From NCBI RefSeq assembly GCF_030384885.1, contig NZ_CP128613.1: 64,000 nt of DNA. One strand, 5' to 3'. This stretch comes from Escherichia coli. Lineage in GTDB: Bacteria > Pseudomonadota > Gammaproteobacteria > Enterobacterales > Enterobacteriaceae. The translations under genes and the position numbers were made by a program. The notes beneath the pieces were generated by a model. It ran no database searches. It was given only the letters and a program-made list of their open reading frames with translations, and had not been told where the DNA came from. Positions 7,980 to 56,944 of this stretch are shown here, in pieces (positions within the stretch are counted from its first letter, which is position 1; every line of letters begins with the position of its first letter).

Positions 7980-8756
7980 ATGAAAATTACTCAAATTCGT
8001 AATGCCACCCAAATTATCCAATACGCTGGCAAAACATTTCTTATTGACCCGTTACTCGCGCCTAAAGGAAGTTATCCGGGTTTTGCCGGAACGGCACGCG
8101 CAGAAATCCGCAATCCAACGGTAGAATTACCGTGTGATTTAACAACGTTACTCAACGTTGACGCCCTAATAGTGACCCATTTGCATGAAGATCACTGGGA
8201 CGAAACAGCCTCCCGCGTCGTCCCCAAAGATAAACAGATTTATGTGCAAAATGAGCAAGATGCTGAATCACTGCATAAACAAGGATTTACGCATCTTACC
8301 GTACTTGCCGACGAGACTAAATTTGGCGATATTACTCTGCATAAAACGACAGGGCAGCACGGCTCCGATCGCACCTATGCAGACCCGGCTATGGCGAAGC
8401 GTTTAGGCGCAGCCTGCGGCGTTGTTTTCCAGCACCCGACAGAGAAAACGCTCTATCTGGCTGGCGATACCCTCTGGCGTGATGACGTCGAGGCTACAAT
8501 GCTAACTTTCCAACCAGAAGTGGTGGTGTTGAATGCCGGATTTGCGCATGTTCTGGGGCATGGCGCGATAATTATGGGAGCTGAAGATATTCTCAAAACA
8601 CATTTTACCCTGCCAGAAGCGCAAATTGTCGCGACACATATGGAGGCCGTAAACCACTGTTTGCTGACGCGTGATGCGCTCAAGGAATACGCCAGAGATA
8701 ATCAAATTATCGAATTTGTGAACGTACCAGAAGATGGTGAAACGTTGACATTCTAA
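7980..8756 (+). CDS. MBL-fold metallo-hydrolase (possible lactonase / glyoxalase-II-like), function unknown
   Basis: 258 aa from ATG 7980 (GGAG 7 nt upstream); metal-binding motif THLHEDHWD (HxHxDH); no signal peptide. Confidence 0.75.
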   Translation: MKITQIRNATQIIQYAGKTFLIDPLLAPKGSYPGFAGTARAEIRNPTVELPCDLTTLLNVDALIVTHLHEDHWDETASRVVPKDKQIYVQNEQDAESLHKQGFTHLTVLADETKFGDITLHKTTGQHGSDRTYADPAMAKRLGAACGVVFQHPTEKTLYLAGDTLWRDDVEATMLTFQPEVVVLNAGFAHVLGHGAIIMGAEDILKTHFTLPEAQIVATHMEAVNHCLLTRDALKEYARDNQIIEFVNVPEDGETLTF

Positions 8757-8775
8757 TTCGGAGATAAAGAGTGTT

Positions 8776-9729
8776 ATGCGCCCGCTAACTGTTGCCATTA
8801 TCGCCGTTGCCGGTTTTAGTCCTTTTCACCTTTCCGTACCGTTTATCGTGTTTAGCGAAAAAATGGCGGAGAAAAAACGCTTTCATGTAATTATCTGCGC
8901 TGAAAAGCCGGGAAATGTGGACTCTGCCGATGGGTTTTCCGTAACCGCCACCCATGACTATACGGCAGTCATCCAGGCGGATATTGTGATAATTCCTTAC
9001 TGGGGAACAATTACACAAAAACCGCCACAAAAACTGCTGGAAGCCTTAACGACCGCACGAGATAACGGGGCACAGATTGTCGGGCTTTGCCTGGGCACGT
9101 TTGTGCTCGGCTATGCAGGTTTACTGAACAATAAGCGTGCTGCCACGCACTGGGAGTTCGAGCGTGAATTTCAGGCACGTTTTCCACAAACACATCTGGA
9201 TATTAACGCGTTGTATGTAGACGATGATGGCATTATTACCTCTGCCGGTACTGCCGCGGCGCTGGATTGCTGTTTGTATATTGTTCGGCAACATTTTGGC
9301 AGCGACTATGCTAACCATATTGCCCGACGGATGGTCGTACCGCCATATCGCACCGGCGGTCAGGCGCAGTTTATAGAGCAACCGGTGCCGAAAAATACCC
9401 ATGATGAACGCATTAACCTCCTGCTGGATTACCTGCGGCAAAACATTGCGCAACAGCATGATCTCGACTCGCTGGCTCAGCGAGTAATGATGAGTCGCCG
9501 CACACTAACCCGTCATTTTATGAAAGCGACCGGTTCGAGTATCGCCGAATGGCTCATCACTGAACGCTTACGCCGTAGCCAGGAACTGTTGGGATCCAGT
9601 CAGTTGCCCGTTGAGCGGATAGCGGCTGAGGTGGGTTTTCTCTCACCTGTGACCTGGCGTCAGCATTTTAAATCTCACTTCGGCGTCAGCCCCGCAGAAT
9701 GGCGCAAAACCTTTCGTGGTATGGCATGA
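8776..9729 (+). CDS. GlxA-family transcriptional regulator (N-terminal DJ-1/PfpI-like domain, C-terminal AraC-type HTH)
   Basis: 317 aa; N-terminal part has the nucleophile-elbow-like IVGLCLGTF; C-terminal RRTLTRHFMKATGSSIAEWLITERLRRSQELL... is a typical AraC HTH pair. Confidence 0.75.
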   Translation: MRPLTVAIIAVAGFSPFHLSVPFIVFSEKMAEKKRFHVIICAEKPGNVDSADGFSVTATHDYTAVIQADIVIIPYWGTITQKPPQKLLEALTTARDNGAQIVGLCLGTFVLGYAGLLNNKRAATHWEFEREFQARFPQTHLDINALYVDDDGIITSAGTAAALDCCLYIVRQHFGSDYANHIARRMVVPPYRTGGQAQFIEQPVPKNTHDERINLLLDYLRQNIAQQHDLDSLAQRVMMSRRTLTRHFMKATGSSIAEWLITERLRRSQELLGSSQLPVERIAAEVGFLSPVTWRQHFKSHFGVSPAEWRKTFRGMA

Positions 9730-38905: not shown

Positions 38906-39316
38906 CTACACAACTTCAATGAGGGCATATTCTTCAAAAATAACGTCCATTTCGGGTGAATAGCTTCCCTCTGCCTGGAAAAAACGACGGTGTTCATTGC
39001 GCCAATATTCAAGACTAAGATCACCTTCACCTTCCTTACGGGCAAGCTCCGCGGTGACATCAGAAAATCGCAGTAAATGCAGGCCAATCACTCTGATAAC
39101 ACATACAGGCTCACCACGGCTATTTTCTACAATCTTATACTCACCAATCATCGGAAATGCGTTGTCTTCAATACATCCTGCCAGCGAACCACAGGAAGCA
39201 GTTTTAACACCAGTTGCAATCAACGTTGCGAGGTAATCGGCCAACGCTGCTGAATCGCCAAAACTACAAAAGGAAGCATGGGGATATTTTTGTGAGATTT
39301 TTTCTTTTATGGTCAT
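38906..39316 (-). CDS. ASCH-domain-like small protein, function unknown
   Basis: 136 aa, MTIKEKISQKYPHASFCSFGDSAALADYLATLIATGVKT...; family assignment by pattern only. Confidence 0.55.
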   Translation of the reverse strand: MTIKEKISQKYPHASFCSFGDSAALADYLATLIATGVKTASCGSLAGCIEDNAFPMIGEYKIVENSRGEPVCVIRVIGLHLLRFSDVTAELARKEGEGDLSLEYWRNEHRRFFQAEGSYSPEMDVIFEEYALIEVV

Positions 39317-50299: not shown

Positions 50300-52333
50300 T
50301 CACGCGTCCGGGAACATTACGCTATTACCCGGCGCTTCACGATGGAGATGGATAAAGTTTAGGTGCCGCTCGTACTGATCGAGAATATCGGTGATCACCT
50401 GCTCTTTGCTGTAGTCCATCAGGTCGTTACCCTGGCTGCCTTCTAACAGGAAGGTTTCCAGCCGGTAATAGGTCGATTTCCCGCTACGTGCGCGGTAGGT
50501 AAAGCCCGGCACCGAATATTGCTGTGGCCAAATCTGATAGACAAAGTTTTGCTCTTCACCCATATGCACCAGCAAATCCAGATGCCCTAACTGTTGTCCC
50601 TCTTCCGGCGGCAGGCTTTTTAGCTCCACGTACGCGCCGCGCAACCGCAGCTCCTGCGCCACTTCTTCCATTGCCGGGTAACAGACCGTCTCCATCATCT
50701 GTTTGGTGTAACGCGTGCCCGGATAATTCATCAGGCGCGAGAGACGTTTTTTCCAGCTCAGGCGATCCTGAAGCCCCAGCGGTCGCGGCGCGGTATCACG
50801 GTTGGCACTTTCACGGCGGTAATCTTCTACCTTCAGAGATTTATACAATCCCGCCATCACGAAGAAAATCACAAAGCTGAACGGCAGCCCCATGATTACC
50901 GTGGTGTTTTGCAGCGCGGATATCCCGTTGGTCATCAGCATGCCAAGCGTCAGCAGACCAATCGCCACCGACCAGAAGACGCGCAGCCAGCCGGGGGCGT
51001 CGCTGTTGATATCTTTAAGCTGCGAGGTGAAATTCCCCAGCACCAGCGCGCCGGAGTCCGCCGAGGTCACATAAAACAGCAGGCCAGTAATGGTGGCAAC
51101 CGAGGCGCTAAAGGTAAACGCCGGATACTGCGCCAGCAGGCTGTAGAAGCCGCGCTCCGGATGGACCATCGCTTCCTCGGCAAATGCCGCGCCGCCGTGG
51201 ATGATTTCATACAGCGCGCTATTGCCGAATACCGAGAGCCATAACAGCGTGAAGGTAAACGGAATAATCAACGTGCCCAGCACGAACTGGCGAATGGTGC
51301 GTCCACGCGAGATACGCGCCAGGAACAGGCCGACAAACGGCGACCAGGCTACCCACCATGCCCAGAAAAAGAGCGTCCAGTTATTCATCCACTCAACCGG
51401 GCGGTCAAAGGCGAAACTGTTGAGCGTCATGCCCATAAAGCGGTTAACGTAATCGCCAACGTTCAGCACCAGCGCATTAAGCAGGAACGAGGTGTCGCCC
51501 ATAAACAGCACGAACAGGATCAACCCCAGCGCCAGTGCGACATTGAGTTCAGACAATACGCGAATGCCTTTGTCGACACCGGAAGTCACCGAGATAGTCG
51601 CGATGATTACCGACAGCGCGATCAGCGCCGCTTTCGCCGCCATTGAATCCGGGATATCAAACAGTACGCTCAGGCCATAGTTAAGCTGCACCACGCCAAT
51701 GCCGAGCGTGGTGGCAATCCCGAAGATGGTGCCGATCACCGCTGCAATATCCACCGAGTGACCAATCGGCCCGTTGATCCGTTTACCGAAAATCGGATAC
51801 AGCGCCGAGCGGATCGTGAGCGGCAAATTATAACGATAGCTGAAGTATCCGAGCGCCATGCCCATCAGCGCATACATCGACCAGCCGGTTAAGCCGTAGT
51901 GAAACAGCGTCCAGACCATCGCCTGACGCGCCGCTTCCATCGTCTGCCCTGCCCCTTCCGGCGGCTGCATATACTGCGTGACCGGCTCAGCAACGGAGAA
52001 GAACATCAGATCAATACCAATCCCGGCAGCGAACAGCATCGCCGCCCAGCTCAGTAGACTGAATTCCGGTTTGGATTGTTCAGGCCCGAGCTTCACCGAA
52101 CCAAAACGCGAACAAGCGATGCAGACCACAAAGACAATATAGAGCGTTGCCGCCAGCAGATAGTACCAACCGAAGGTTTTAGAAACCCAGTCCAGCGTGC
52201 GGCCAATCCACAGGGCCGAGAAGTCGCGAAACAGGATCGTTGTCAGGGAAAACAACAAAATCAGTCCGGCGGAGGTGTAAAACACCACCGGATTGATTTT
52301 GTCCTTTTCCCTGCTGTGCGAAAGGTCTGTCAT
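50300..52333 (-). CDS. betT: choline transporter (BCCT family)
   Basis: 677 aa, MTDLSHSREKDKINPVVFYTSAGLILLFS... Confidence 0.97.
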   Translation of the reverse strand: MTDLSHSREKDKINPVVFYTSAGLILLFSLTTILFRDFSALWIGRTLDWVSKTFGWYYLLAATLYIVFVVCIACSRFGSVKLGPEQSKPEFSLLSWAAMLFAAGIGIDLMFFSVAEPVTQYMQPPEGAGQTMEAARQAMVWTLFHYGLTGWSMYALMGMALGYFSYRYNLPLTIRSALYPIFGKRINGPIGHSVDIAAVIGTIFGIATTLGIGVVQLNYGLSVLFDIPDSMAAKAALIALSVIIATISVTSGVDKGIRVLSELNVALALGLILFVLFMGDTSFLLNALVLNVGDYVNRFMGMTLNSFAFDRPVEWMNNWTLFFWAWWVAWSPFVGLFLARISRGRTIRQFVLGTLIIPFTFTLLWLSVFGNSALYEIIHGGAAFAEEAMVHPERGFYSLLAQYPAFTFSASVATITGLLFYVTSADSGALVLGNFTSQLKDINSDAPGWLRVFWSVAIGLLTLGMLMTNGISALQNTTVIMGLPFSFVIFFVMAGLYKSLKVEDYRRESANRDTAPRPLGLQDRLSWKKRLSRLMNYPGTRYTKQMMETVCYPAMEEVAQELRLRGAYVELKSLPPEEGQQLGHLDLLVHMGEEQNFVYQIWPQQYSVPGFTYRARSGKSTYYRLETFLLEGSQGNDLMDYSKEQVITDILDQYERHLNFIHLHREAPGNSVMFPDA

Positions 52334-52461
52334 CCAGTATCCCCACTGTTATTGTTACCATTTAAAATCAAATTAGTAACAATTAAGACACATTTTATAT
52401 TGAACGTCCAATCAATAACGGCTTTAATGTATAAACAACGCTGATGAATGGAGTGGCAAAA
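52334..52461. promoter_or_regulatory. divergent betT / betIBA control region
   Basis: AT-rich intergenic region between divergent operons; BetI operator expected here. Confidence 0.5.
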
Positions 52462-53049
52462 ATGCCCAAATTGGGGATGCAGTCGATCCGGCGCAGACAA
52501 CTGATCGACGCCACGCTGGAAGCAATAAATGAAGTAGGTATGCACGATGCGACGATCGCGCAGATCGCCCGCCGGGCGGGCGTTTCCACCGGGATCATTA
52601 GCCACTATTTCAAAGATAAAAATGGTCTGCTGGAAGCAACCATGCGTGATATCACCAGCCAGCTGCGTGACGCGGTCTTGAACCGCTTACACGCGCTACC
52701 GGATGGCAGCCCTGAGCAGCGATTACAGGCGATTGTTGACGGAAATTTCGATGAGACTCAGGTCAGTAATGCTGCGATGAAAGCCTGGCTGGCGTTTTGG
52801 GCCAGCAGTATGCATCAGCCGATGCTTTACCGTTTGCAGCAGGTGAGCAGCCGCCGATTGTTGTCGAATCTGGTGAGCGAATTTCACCGCGAGTTACCGC
52901 GCAAAGAGGCACAGGAGGCAGGTTATGGCCTGGCCGCGCTGATTGACGGTTTATGGCTGCGCGCGGCATTGAGCGGTAAACCGCTGAATAAATCTCTCGC
53001 ACACTCGCTCACCCGCCACTTTATCACTCAGCATTTACCCACCGATTAA
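52462..53049 (+). CDS. betI: TetR-family repressor of the bet genes
   Basis: 195 aa from the internal Met, [42 protein letters not shown]... Confidence 0.93.
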
Positions 53050-53062
53050 CCGAGGAGACGTG

Positions 53063-54535
53063 ATGTCCCGAATGGCAGAACAGCAGCTTTATATACATGG
53101 TGGTTATACCTCCGCCACCAGCGGTCGCACCTTCGAGACCATTAACCCGGCCAACGGTAACGTGCTGGCGACCGTGCAGGCCGCCGGGCGCGAAGATGTC
53201 GATCGCGCCGTGAAGAGTGCCCAACAAGGGCAAAAAATCTGGGCGGCGATGACCGCCATGGAACGCTCGCGCATTCTGCGTCGAGCCGTTGATATTCTGC
53301 GCGAATGCAATGACGAACTCGCTAAACTGGAAACCCTCGACACCGGAAAAGCGTATTCAGAAACCTCAACCGTCGATATCGTTACCGGCGCGGACGTGCT
53401 CGAGTACTACGCCGGGCTGCTCCCGTCGCTGGAAGGCAGCCAGATCCCATTGCGTGAGACGTCATTTGTTTATACCCGCCGCGAACCGCTGGGCGTAGTG
53501 GCAGGGATTGGCGCATGGAACTACCCGATCCAGATTGCCTTGTGGAAATCCGCACCGGCGCTGGCGGCAGGCAACGCGATGATTTTCAAACCGAGCGAAG
53601 TCACCCCGCTTACCGCGTTAAAGCTGGCTGAAATCTACAGCGAAGCGGGCCTGCCGGACGGCGTATTTAACGTGTTGCCGGGCGTAGGTGCGGAAACCGG
53701 GCAGTATCTGACCGAGCATCCGGGCATCGCCAAAGTGTCGTTTACCGGCGGCGTCGCCAGCGGCAAAAAGGTGATGGCTAACGCGGCGGCCTCTTCCCTG
53801 AAAGAGGTGACCATGGAGCTGGGCGGTAAATCGCCGCTGATCGTTTTCGACGATGCAGACCTCGATCTCGCCGCCGATATCGCCATGATGGCGAACTTCT
53901 TTAGCTCCGGTCAGGTGTGTACCAATGGCACCCGCGTGTTTATTCCGGCGAAATACAAAGCCGCGTTTGAGCAGAAAATACTGGCGCGCGTTGAACGCAT
54001 TCGCGCGGGCGACGTTTTCGATCCGCAAACTAACTTCGGCCCGCTGGTCAGCTTCCCGCATCGCGATAACGTGCTGCGCTATATCGCCAAAGGCAAAGAG
54101 GAAGGTGCTCGGGTGCTCTGCGGCGGCGATGTGCTGAAGGGTGATGGCTTCGATAACGGCGCATGGGTTGCTCCGACCGTATTCACCGATTGCTGCGACG
54201 AAATGACTATCGTGCGCGAAGAGATCTTCGGCCCGGTGATGTCGCTCCTCACGTATGAGTCTGAAGACGAAGTGATTCGCCGCGCCAATGATACCGACTA
54301 CGGTCTGGCGGCGGGTATCGTCACGGCGGATCTGAACCGCGCGCATCGCGTCATTCATCAGCTGGAAGCCGGCATTTGCTGGATCAACACCTGGGGAGAA
54401 TCCCCGGCGGAGATGCCCGTTGGCGGTTACAAACACTCCGGCATTGGCCGTGAGAACGGCGTGATGACGCTCCAGAGTTATACCCAGGTGAAGTCCATCC
54501 AGGTTGAGATGGCTAAATTCCAGTCCATATTCTAA
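53063..54535 (+). CDS. betB: betaine aldehyde dehydrogenase
   Basis: 490 aa, [32 protein letters not shown]... Confidence 0.97.
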
Positions 54536-54548
54536 CCAGGAGGTTTAT

Positions 54549-56237
54549 TTGCAATTTGACTACATCATTATTGGCGCCGGCTCTGCCGGCAACGTCCTCG
54601 CGACACGTCTGACTGAAGATCCGAACACTACCGTGCTGCTGCTTGAAGCGGGCGGCCCGGACTATCGCTTTGACTTCCGTACCCAAATGCCCGCTGCGCT
54701 GGCGTTCCCGCTACAGGGTAAACGCTATAACTGGGCGTATGAGACCGAGCCGGAACCGTTTATGAACAACCGTCGCATGGAGTGCGGACGCGGTAAGGGG
54801 CTTGGTGGATCATCATTGATCAACGGCATGTGTTACATCCGTGGTAACGCGCTGGATCTCGATAACTGGGCGAAAGAACCCGGTCTGGAGAACTGGAGCT
54901 ACCTCGACTGCCTGCCCTACTACCGCAAGGCCGAGACGCGCGATGTGGGCGAGAACGACTACCACGGCGCTGATGGCCCGGTAAGCGTGACCACCTCAAA
55001 ACCGGGTGTCAATCCGCTGTTTGAAGCGATGATTGAGGCGGGCGTGCAGGCGGGCTATCCGCGCACAGAAGACCTTAACGGTTATCAGCAGGAAGGTTTC
55101 GGCCCGATGGACCGCACCGTCACGCCGCAGGGCCGTCGCGCCAGCACCGCGCGGGGTTATCTCGATCAGGCTAAATCGCGCCCGAACCTGACTATTCGAA
55201 CTCACGCCATGACCGATCACATTATCTTTGACGGCAAACGCGCGGTAGGCGTCGAGTGGCTGGAAGGCGACAGCACCATCCCAACCCGCGCAACGGCCAA
55301 CAAAGAAGTGCTGTTATGTGCAGGCGCGATTGCCTCACCACAAATCCTGCAACGCTCCGGCGTCGGCAACGCTGAACTGCTGGCCGAATTTGATATTCCG
55401 CTGGTGCATGATTTGCCCGGCGTGGGCGAAAATCTTCAGGATCATCTGGAGATGTACCTGCAATACGAGTGCAAAGAACCGGTTTCCCTCTACCCTGCCC
55501 TGCAGTGGTGGAATCAGCCGAAAATCGGTGCGGAGTGGCTGTTTGGCGGCACCGGCGTGGGTGCCAGCAACCACTTTGAAGCAGGCGGATTTATTCGCAG
55601 CCGTGAGGAATTTGCGTGGCCGAATATTCAGTACCATTTCCTGCCAGTGGCGATTAACTATAACGGCTCGAACGCAGTGAAAGAGCACGGCTTCCAGTGC
55701 CATGTCGGATCGATGCGCTCGCCAAGCCGTGGGCATGTGCGGATTAAATCCCGCGACCCGCACCAGCATCCGGCGATTTTGTTTAACTACATGTCGCACG
55801 AACAGGACTGGCAGGAGTTCCGCGACGCGATTCGCATCACCCGCGAGATCATGCATCAACCGGCGCTGGATCAATACCGTGGCCGCGAAATCAGCCCCGG
55901 CGCGGAATGCCAGACAGATGAGCAGCTCGATGAGTTCGTGCGTAATCACGCCGAAACCGCCTTCCACCCATGCGGTACGTGCAAAATGGGGTACGACGAG
56001 ATGTCCGTTGTGGATGGCGAAGGCCGCGTGCACGGGCTGGAAGGATTACGCGTAGTCGATGCGTCAATTATGCCGCAGATTATCACCGGCAATCTGAACG
56101 CCACGACCATTATGATTGGCGAGAAAATGGCGGATATAATTCGCGGACGAGAAGCGTTGTCCAGAAGTCTGGCGGCGTATTTTGTGGCGAATGGGATGCC
56201 AGTAAGAGCGAAAAAACTGAATCGCGATTTGAACTAA
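54549..56237 (+). CDS. betA: choline dehydrogenase (GMC oxidoreductase)
   Basis: 562 aa; the only start upstream of the FAD motif [11 protein letters not shown] and downstream of betB is TTG at 54549, 5 nt after AGGAGG. Confidence 0.9.
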
Positions 56238-56528
56238 CGCAGGAACTTATAAGCTTGAGAGTTACCGTTCTACGATAAGGACCGAATCCTTATATAAAAA
56301 ACATAGGTAACTCTCATGCTTCATATCCAGTATTCATGATGCTGGTTTTTTGCTGATGTTTTTACCAGAATATTCCTGATACAGACTATTAATTCAAGCT
56401 TATCTGCGACAGATTTCATTTTCTGGATATATTATGAGTGACAAATCAAACAGGATATCGATCTGATTGAAATTTTATTTTATCTGAAGAAAAAGATTCG
56501 TGTTATTCTGTTTATTATAGCTGTTTGT

Positions 56529-56944
56529 ATGACAATGGTGCTATTATTTCTGTACATCAATAAAGACAATATAAAGCTGAGTTACAGCCTAAAAATAAAC
56601 CACACAACATCAGGCATACTTGTAAGCTGTGATAGCAATAATAACTTTGCCTGTCAGACCACAATGACTGAAGATGTTATTCAGCGAATTACGAGTTTTT
56701 TAGACCAGTACTAATGCTAAAAATTGCCTTGTCAAAAAAATGGTAGATGAATACAAACAAAACTCTGGGCAGTAATAAACAGCATTCTGACAGAGAGTGC
56801 CTGTATAAAGCTGAAGTGACAATGACCGGGAAGGGAGCCCGTCTTCAGGAAAGGATTCCTGTCTTTTTCACTGTAAATATCCTGGCATTATTAATGTCAG
56901 GATATTTACAGAAGAGGAGCATAACCATGACGGAACGGGGTTAA
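56529..56944 (+). pseudogene. ykgH-position remnant: two short ORFs in different frames
   Basis: ORFs 56529-56714 (61 aa; the open frame upstream encodes a hydrophobic stretch IRVILFIIAVC) and 56747-56944 (65 aa); no intact ~220-aa ORF on either strand. Confidence 0.3.
56871..56911. repeat. perfect 14-bp inverted repeat with 13-bp spacer
   Basis: ctgtaaatatcctg-gcattattaatgt-caggatatttacag. Confidence 0.8.

Follow-up and report, generated by a model that had tools for sequence, protein, structure and literature searches.

The TTG at position 54549 of the 64,000-nt stretch of Escherichia coli DNA analysed here (the window) is the annotated native start codon (UUG in the mRNA) of betA, the gene that closes the betIBA operon. 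Its sequence, conservation, annotation and capacity to initiate translation on ribosomes in vitro all identify it as a start codon. The best overall explanation, to which we assign a probability of roughly 85%, is that a native UUG is compensated by the Shine-Dalgarno (SD) sequence in front of it, that initiation there is independent of the upstream gene, and that the combination is a maintained setting of BetA output. From the pairing of TTG with this SD we infer that the two are compensatory and that together they set the level of BetA relative to BetB. The features concerned are these:

53063..54535, + strand: betB (betaine-aldehyde dehydrogenase), the upstream cistron, as annotated in the near-identical strain 2013C-4282
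54504..54506, + strand: upstream in-frame TTG inside betB, which opens the mechanical ORF; not a start
54536..54548, + strand: betB-betA intercistronic spacer of 13 nt, CC-AGGAGG-TTTAT, read from the sequence
54538..54543, + strand: Shine-Dalgarno sequence AGGAGG, which with the next T gives the GGAGGT core complementary to the 16S 3' end
54549..54551, + strand: betA initiation codon TTG, the annotated start in 2013C-4282 and in K-12 (b0311)
54549..56237, + strand: betA (choline dehydrogenase), 562 aa, a TIGR01810 equivalog with Pfam GMC_oxred_N
53047..53065, + strand: betI-betB junction, used as comparator, TAA-CC-GAGGAG-ACGTG-ATG, with a 13-nt gap, read from the sequence

The initial annotation had described a TTG start 5 nt after a perfect AGGAGG and 14 nt after betB, and each of these coordinates is borne out by the sequence. 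The betB stop codon, read directly as TAA at 54533-54535, is followed by CC (54536-54537), the SD and the 5-nt spacer TTTAT (54544-54548). Two nucleotides separate the stop from the SD and 13 separate it from the start, which places the TTG 14 nt past the final base of the TAA. The in-frame codons of this gap are CAG GAG GTT TAT, none of which is a start codon, and the claim that the frame offers no start other than this TTG from the betB stop to the FAD motif is true for that interval. The codons that follow the TTG are CAA TTT GAC TAC ATC ATT ATT GGC GCC GGC TCT GCC GGC. The identity of the two cistrons is clear from their products and their setting: the betB product scores 910 bits against NCBIfam NF009725 (cut-off 593), and both the near-identical record and the K-12 annotation show a divergent betT followed by betI-betB-betA.

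The match of the BetA protein to its family profiles bears on where translation begins. Against TIGR01810 it scores 1030.3 bits (cut-off 732.1), with residues 4-537 covering profile positions 1-532; against NF002550 it scores 998.7 bits (cut-off 605), with residue 1 aligned to profile position 4; and position 1 of Pfam PF00732 (GMC_oxred_N) aligns to residue 3. The FAD-binding GxGxxG motif occupies residues 8-13 (within a motif stretch at residues 4-14), at the start of GMC_oxred_N. The TTG is thus in frame at the point where homologues and family profiles set the N-terminus, and no better start lies nearby. We conclude that TTG 54549 is the true betA start because PGAP and the K-12 annotation both place it there, the family profiles run from residues 1-4, ATG-type orthologues begin at that codon or a neighboring one, and a ribosome initiation peak falls on this very codon in published K-12 data. 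The earlier proposal that BetA starts at the TTG holds up on all of these counts.

The alternative, that BetA starts elsewhere, whether upstream at TTG 54504 or downstream, for example at the GTG of codon 29, has next to no chance of being correct. In its favor, the reading frame is mechanically open upstream of the betA TTG as far as TTG 54504. That codon, however, has no SD and lies inside betB, and in 10 of the 33 species that carry TTG at the position homologous to the betA start it is either missing or separated from betA by an in-frame stop. In the Klebsiella and Raoultella group, Citrobacter amalonaticus, C. sedlakii and E. coli 23CRST011, the upstream frame is either interrupted or displaced; in 23CRST011 this is due to a 1-nt deletion, which puts TTG 54504 out of frame with betA. 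Lacking an SD, internal to betB and unconserved across species, it can be ruled out as the betA start. Downstream, the next conventional in-frame start is the GTG at codon 29, which lies past the GxGxxG motif; starting there would remove the FAD-binding motif at which the Pfam and TIGRFAM profiles begin. In addition, the table of non-annotated initiation sites in the INRI-seq study discussed below (Table S3) lists none for betA (PMC9825163).

Whether the K-12 reference has ATG at this position had been left in doubt; it does not. In K-12 MG1655 (RefSeq NC_000913.3), betA (b0311, NP_414845.1) lies at 325577..327247 on the minus strand with TTG as its first codon, preceded by AGGAGGTTTAT, and PGAP puts the betA start of 2013C-4282 at the identical TTG. 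The TTG start is therefore already known, being present in the K-12 reference annotation and reproduced by PGAP. The protein family and the operon order (betT / betI-betB-betA) are the same, and the betB stop, the 13-nt spacer, AGGAGG, TTTAT and TTG are all identical between the two strains. The start site shows no difference of any kind; the differences lie in the identity of the surrounding locus and at the C-terminus. There, BetA has 562 aa in the window and 556 in K-12, with a C-terminal extension, LNRDLN, before the TAA (56200-56237) that derives from a 1-nt insertion (a C after an A-run) abolishing the K-12 TGA stop.

The comparison with other E. coli betA start regions that the initial annotation had proposed gives the same result. 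We searched 5426 complete E. coli genomes with a 60-mer that runs from the end of betB through the SD and TTG into the first betA codons. It matched 5183 records, distributed over 5179 genomes, and 5146 of these records are identical across 59-60 bases around the junction. A 59-mer with ATG or GTG in place of TTG matched no record at 100% identity in the same 5426 genomes. The one outlier record that we inspected, from E. coli 23CRST011, has lost 1 nt between the betB stop and the SD, and its annotated betA start is still the TTG. The TTG can accordingly be neither a sequencing error nor an ancestral ATG that mutated in this strain: the same codon is found in K-12 and in 5146/5183 E. coli records, the ATG and GTG variants were not found, and TTG is common to 33 other species. 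The junction is missing from 247 of the 5426 genomes, and 10 of the junction copies in the collection are on plasmids.

The junction lies within a 93-bp run (54482-54574) that is 100% identical to K-12, extending from 67 nt upstream of the TTG to 25 nt into betA; this is the fifth-longest run of perfect K-12 identity in the 6.4-kb bet locus, which overall is 92.7-92.8% identical to K-12 and 93-94% identical to most E. coli. The betI-betB junction sits inside a run of perfect K-12 identity of 158 bp. The window as a whole belongs to a divergent lineage and differs from E. coli 2013C-4282 (NZ_CP027579.1) at 11 of 64,000 positions. Its codBA genes are approximately 96% identical to those of most E. 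coli, against 92.8-94% for the bet locus (52049-56203). The betI-betB-betA block resembles that of Pseudocitrobacter vendiensis (96.6% identity) more than that of K-12, and the gene tree places it with the former. This pattern suggests either that the bet operon has moved between Escherichia and Pseudocitrobacter or that the allele is old and divergent.

Direct evidence that ribosomes use the betA TTG in vitro comes from the genome-wide INRI-seq data of Hör et al. 2022 (PMC9825163), in which synthetic transcripts are translated in the PURE system and initiating ribosomes are trapped with retapamulin. In each construct the gene's own start codon is flanked by 30 nt of native upstream sequence and 150 nt of coding sequence (PMC9825163), and the betA oligonucleotide in Table S6 of that study reads ...TCTAACCAGGAGGTTTATTTGCAATTTGAC... 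(PMC9825163). K-12 and the window are identical from -30 to +26. At the betA TTG (K-12 327247) the peaks were 104.8, 89.4, 84.6, 69.7 and 91.3, and the site was identified, from a template abundance of 55.6 CPM; at the betB ATG (K-12 328733) the peaks were 29.3-52.0 across the 5 replicates, again identified, with the template at 97.3 CPM (PMC9825163). Initiation at the betA TTG was thus seen in 5/5 replicates, in vitro only, in published K-12 data. The betA signal exceeds that of betB 2.0-fold raw and 3.6-fold per unit template, although peak height is retapamulin-trapped occupancy accumulated over 30 minutes, not a rate, and the ranking of betA at or above betB may not hold in cells. In the same dataset the betI start was not detected (peak 0, not identified; template 84.7 CPM), and a minor in-frame ATG initiation site was recorded 9 nt inside K-12 betB (PMC9825163).

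In vivo, the Ribo-RET signal is zero for betA and betB alike (PMC9825163), because the operon is uninduced under those conditions. The part of the TRAINSPOTTER N-terminomics supplement available to us held no BetA peptide, and the literature searched yielded no in-vivo data on BetA initiation or on the N-terminus of the protein. Nor did full-text literature searches return an explicit statement of the betA TTG start or of translational coupling in the bet operon.

The suggestion in the initial annotation that betA translation is tuned or coupled to betB therefore divides into two parts that fare differently. Tuning is plausible, in that it is consistent with the evolutionary constraint and the invariant strong SD described below. 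Coupling as a requirement is unsupported: the isolated betA region, with 30 nt of upstream sequence and no betB translation, initiates in vitro, so that betB translation is not needed there and any dependence on it is not absolute. Coupling may make a partial contribution to betA translation in vivo.

The most direct form such a link could take is termination-reinitiation, in which ribosomes ending at the betB TAA are captured by the strong SD and reinitiate on the UUG, tying BetA to BetB. As the main route to BetA this is decidedly unlikely. The geometry is suggestive: just 2 nt separate the stop from the SD and 13 nt separate it from the start, an arrangement repeated with the same 13-nt gap at betI-betB, and one E. 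coli test pair retained about 60% of reinitiation at +14 nt (PMC10666635). Reinitiation at this distance is, however, gene-specific, and less than 20% was kept in another pair (Huber et al. 2023, PMC10666635). The same authors excluded gaps of 11-20 nt from their "coupled" class as unpredictable (PMC10666635), and favored independent initiation for the E. coli peak near +10 nt (PMC10666635). The pairs examined by Huber et al. (2019, 2023) resemble betB-betA in being same-strand operon neighbors with an SD right after the stop, but they overlap by 4 or 1 nt or lie within approximately 10 nt of each other. The betB-betA gap of 13 nt exceeds this distance and falls in the 11-20 nt class, and its downstream site initiates independently in vitro. 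The formation of initiation complexes on the isolated betA region in 5/5 replicates without betB translation counts against reinitiation as the main route, and reinitiation on a weak codon would also be expected to be harder, not easier.

A second form of coupling would be mediated by structure, with the betA SD locked in an mRNA hairpin until ribosomes reading through the end of betB opened it. We consider this very improbable. The minimum-free-energy fold of the window sequence does pair AGGA of the SD with UCCU at 54595-54598, but this fold is not significant (z = -1.78, with 11/200 shuffles as good and an ensemble frequency of 0.08). The UCCU partner is not conserved, being replaced by GTACTG or GTGCTG in other genera, and a 15-species consensus fold lacks the helix and contains 0 pairs with compensatory change. 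Finally, the isolated region, which includes the putative partner segment, still initiates in vitro. An SD-occluding hairpin is therefore largely ruled out as neither significant nor conserved, and no conserved mRNA structure occluding the betA SD or start was found.

Within the window, the betA junction stands out for both its start codon and its SD. Start codons and SDs across the window were taken from the annotation of 2013C-4282, which differs at 11/64,000 positions and has 52 intact CDS; these comprise 45 ATG, 6 GTG and 1 TTG start, the last being betA. The predicted SD:anti-SD duplex of betA (-11.5 kcal/mol) ranks second in strength among the 52 genes, and AGGAGG stands at a functional spacing, 5 nt upstream of the start. 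The hexamer itself is depleted in the window, with 9 copies on both strands against approximately 33 expected from base composition, and only the copy at betA precedes a long ORF. Predicted SDs tend to be stronger in the 7 non-ATG genes of the window than in its 45 ATG genes (one-sided Mann-Whitney p = 0.034, in a small sample), and codB, codA and lacI, all with GTG starts, have SD duplexes of -9.3 to -10.7 kcal/mol.

The betI-betB junction offers a comparison within the same operon. It shares the geometry of betB-betA (TAA, CC, a six-base SD and a five-base spacer) but has an ATG start, and its predicted SD duplex, at -8.9 kcal/mol, is weaker than the -11.5 of betA. Different combinations of codon and SD at the two internal cistrons, betB and betA, are what tuning would look like at the level of sequence, with the strong SD of betA plausibly offsetting its weak codon. 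An in-frame GTG also occurs 3 nt upstream of the betB ATG at this junction.

To place the TTG in an evolutionary context we scanned one genome per species, which gave 80 betA loci. The homologous codon is TTG in 33 of these species representatives and ATG in the other 47. The TTG group takes in Pseudocitrobacter, many Enterobacter, Huaxiibacter, Lelliottia, Leclercia, the Klebsiella oxytoca group, Raoultella, Citrobacter amalonaticus and C. sedlakii. ATG stands at the same codon in Trabulsiella, Pluralibacter, Cedecea, Pantoea, Kosakonia, Tatumella, Rosenbergiella and some Pseudomonas, and one or two codons upstream in most Pseudomonas and in Moraxella. On an approximate neighbor-joining gene tree of 53 Enterobacterales betA sequences, ATG types included, parsimony counts 3 changes at the start codon, compared with a median of 13 at 158 four-fold degenerate sites, of which only 2.5% show 3 changes or fewer. 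On these counts the state of the start codon, whether TTG or ATG, is much more stable than neutral sites and evolutionarily constrained.

SD strength varies with the start codon in a manner that fits compensation of the weak codon. The GGAGGT core is present in 33/33 TTG orthologues, every one of which has a predicted duplex of -11.5 kcal/mol, whereas in ATG orthologues the value ranges from -3.5 to -12.1 kcal/mol. Within Enterobacterales the medians are -11.5 for TTG and -8.4 for ATG (Mann-Whitney p = 1.4e-4, uncorrected for phylogeny), a contrast that is confounded by shared ancestry and amounts effectively to 2-3 independent events. The comparative data are thus consistent with TTG and a strong SD together being an old, selectively maintained setting of BetA output, common to Escherichia and several neighboring genera, and this forms part of the overall explanation favored at the outset.

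A detailed consideration of these features enables us to propose how the betA site may work. UUG starts account for approximately 3% of E. coli genes, and AUG, GUG and UUG span 10-100% of the AUG level (Hecht et al., bioRxiv 10.1101/063800). In the proposed mechanism, 30S subunits would bind the strong SD (AGGAGGU) and initiate with fMet-tRNA on the UUG. By itself the UUG would provide only a fraction of the initiation efficiency of AUG, but the unusually strong, optimally spaced SD would offset this, such that the site as a whole need not be weak. The betA site could then operate by independent, de novo initiation, with betB translation unneeded. Like other UUG-initiated E. coli genes, betA uses a canonical near-cognate start that is decoded by fMet-tRNA with an efficiency below that of AUG; it is set apart from them by the rarity of its SD, which matches the six-base consensus in full.

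Compensation need not be the only consequence of the weak codon. It is conceivable that the TTG and the invariant strong SD act as a selected throttle, holding BetA at a fixed or IF3-sensitive ratio below the level that ATG would give, such that toxic betaine aldehyde never outruns BetB. We regard this as a minority possibility, with the odds clearly against it; if it were true, the slow change of the start codon compared with synonymous sites would be the trace left by such selection. BetA and BetB are not known to form part of one complex.

A related proposal, which we judge improbable, makes the UUG a regulatory sensor: discrimination by IF3 would cause BetA translation to vary with IF3 availability, growth rate and stress, adding a further layer to osmotic induction. 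The constraint on the start-codon state is compatible with this, native non-ATG starts can have condition-dependent fitness effects, as for the GTG of lacI (PMC11445065), and the gatekeeping of non-AUG starts by IF3 has been summarized by Hecht et al. (bioRxiv 10.1101/063800). Against it, betA-specific data were not found and many close relatives manage with ATG.

Among starts that have been studied, the GTG of lacI comes nearest in spirit to the betA TTG. Both are conserved non-ATG starts in metabolic loci of Enterobacteriaceae, and the lacI gene of the window likewise combines GTG with a strong SD. For lacI, the start codon itself sets the protein level, and the fitness effect of GTG versus ATG has been measured in vivo (Cherrak et al. 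2024, PMC11445065). A comparable experiment on betA was not found, and betA encodes an operon-internal enzyme, whereas lacI encodes a regulator.

Returning to the favored reading of a native UUG compensated by its SD, the betA TTG is conserved but ordinary, with little importance beyond correct annotation, and it opens no new question. Its modest added value is comparative: a TTG start common to several enterobacterial genera, slow to change and always accompanied by a strong SD. As such, betA provides a tidy natural example of the pairing of a weak codon with a strong SD for work on operon-internal translation rates.

Several neighboring loci in the window also deserve mention. Downstream of betA, at 56445-56699, in the place of K-12 ykgH, the matching record has only a partial pseudogene annotated, and rclC (63143-63736) contains an internal stop. 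At 7980-9729, mhpR and lacI, which adjoin each other in K-12, are separated by genes for an MBL-fold metallo-hydrolase and a GlxA-family regulator. A cluster at 34219-39316, between yahK and yahJ, comprises an ABC sugar or AI-2-type transporter together with an ASCH-domain gene and is possibly lineage-specific content.
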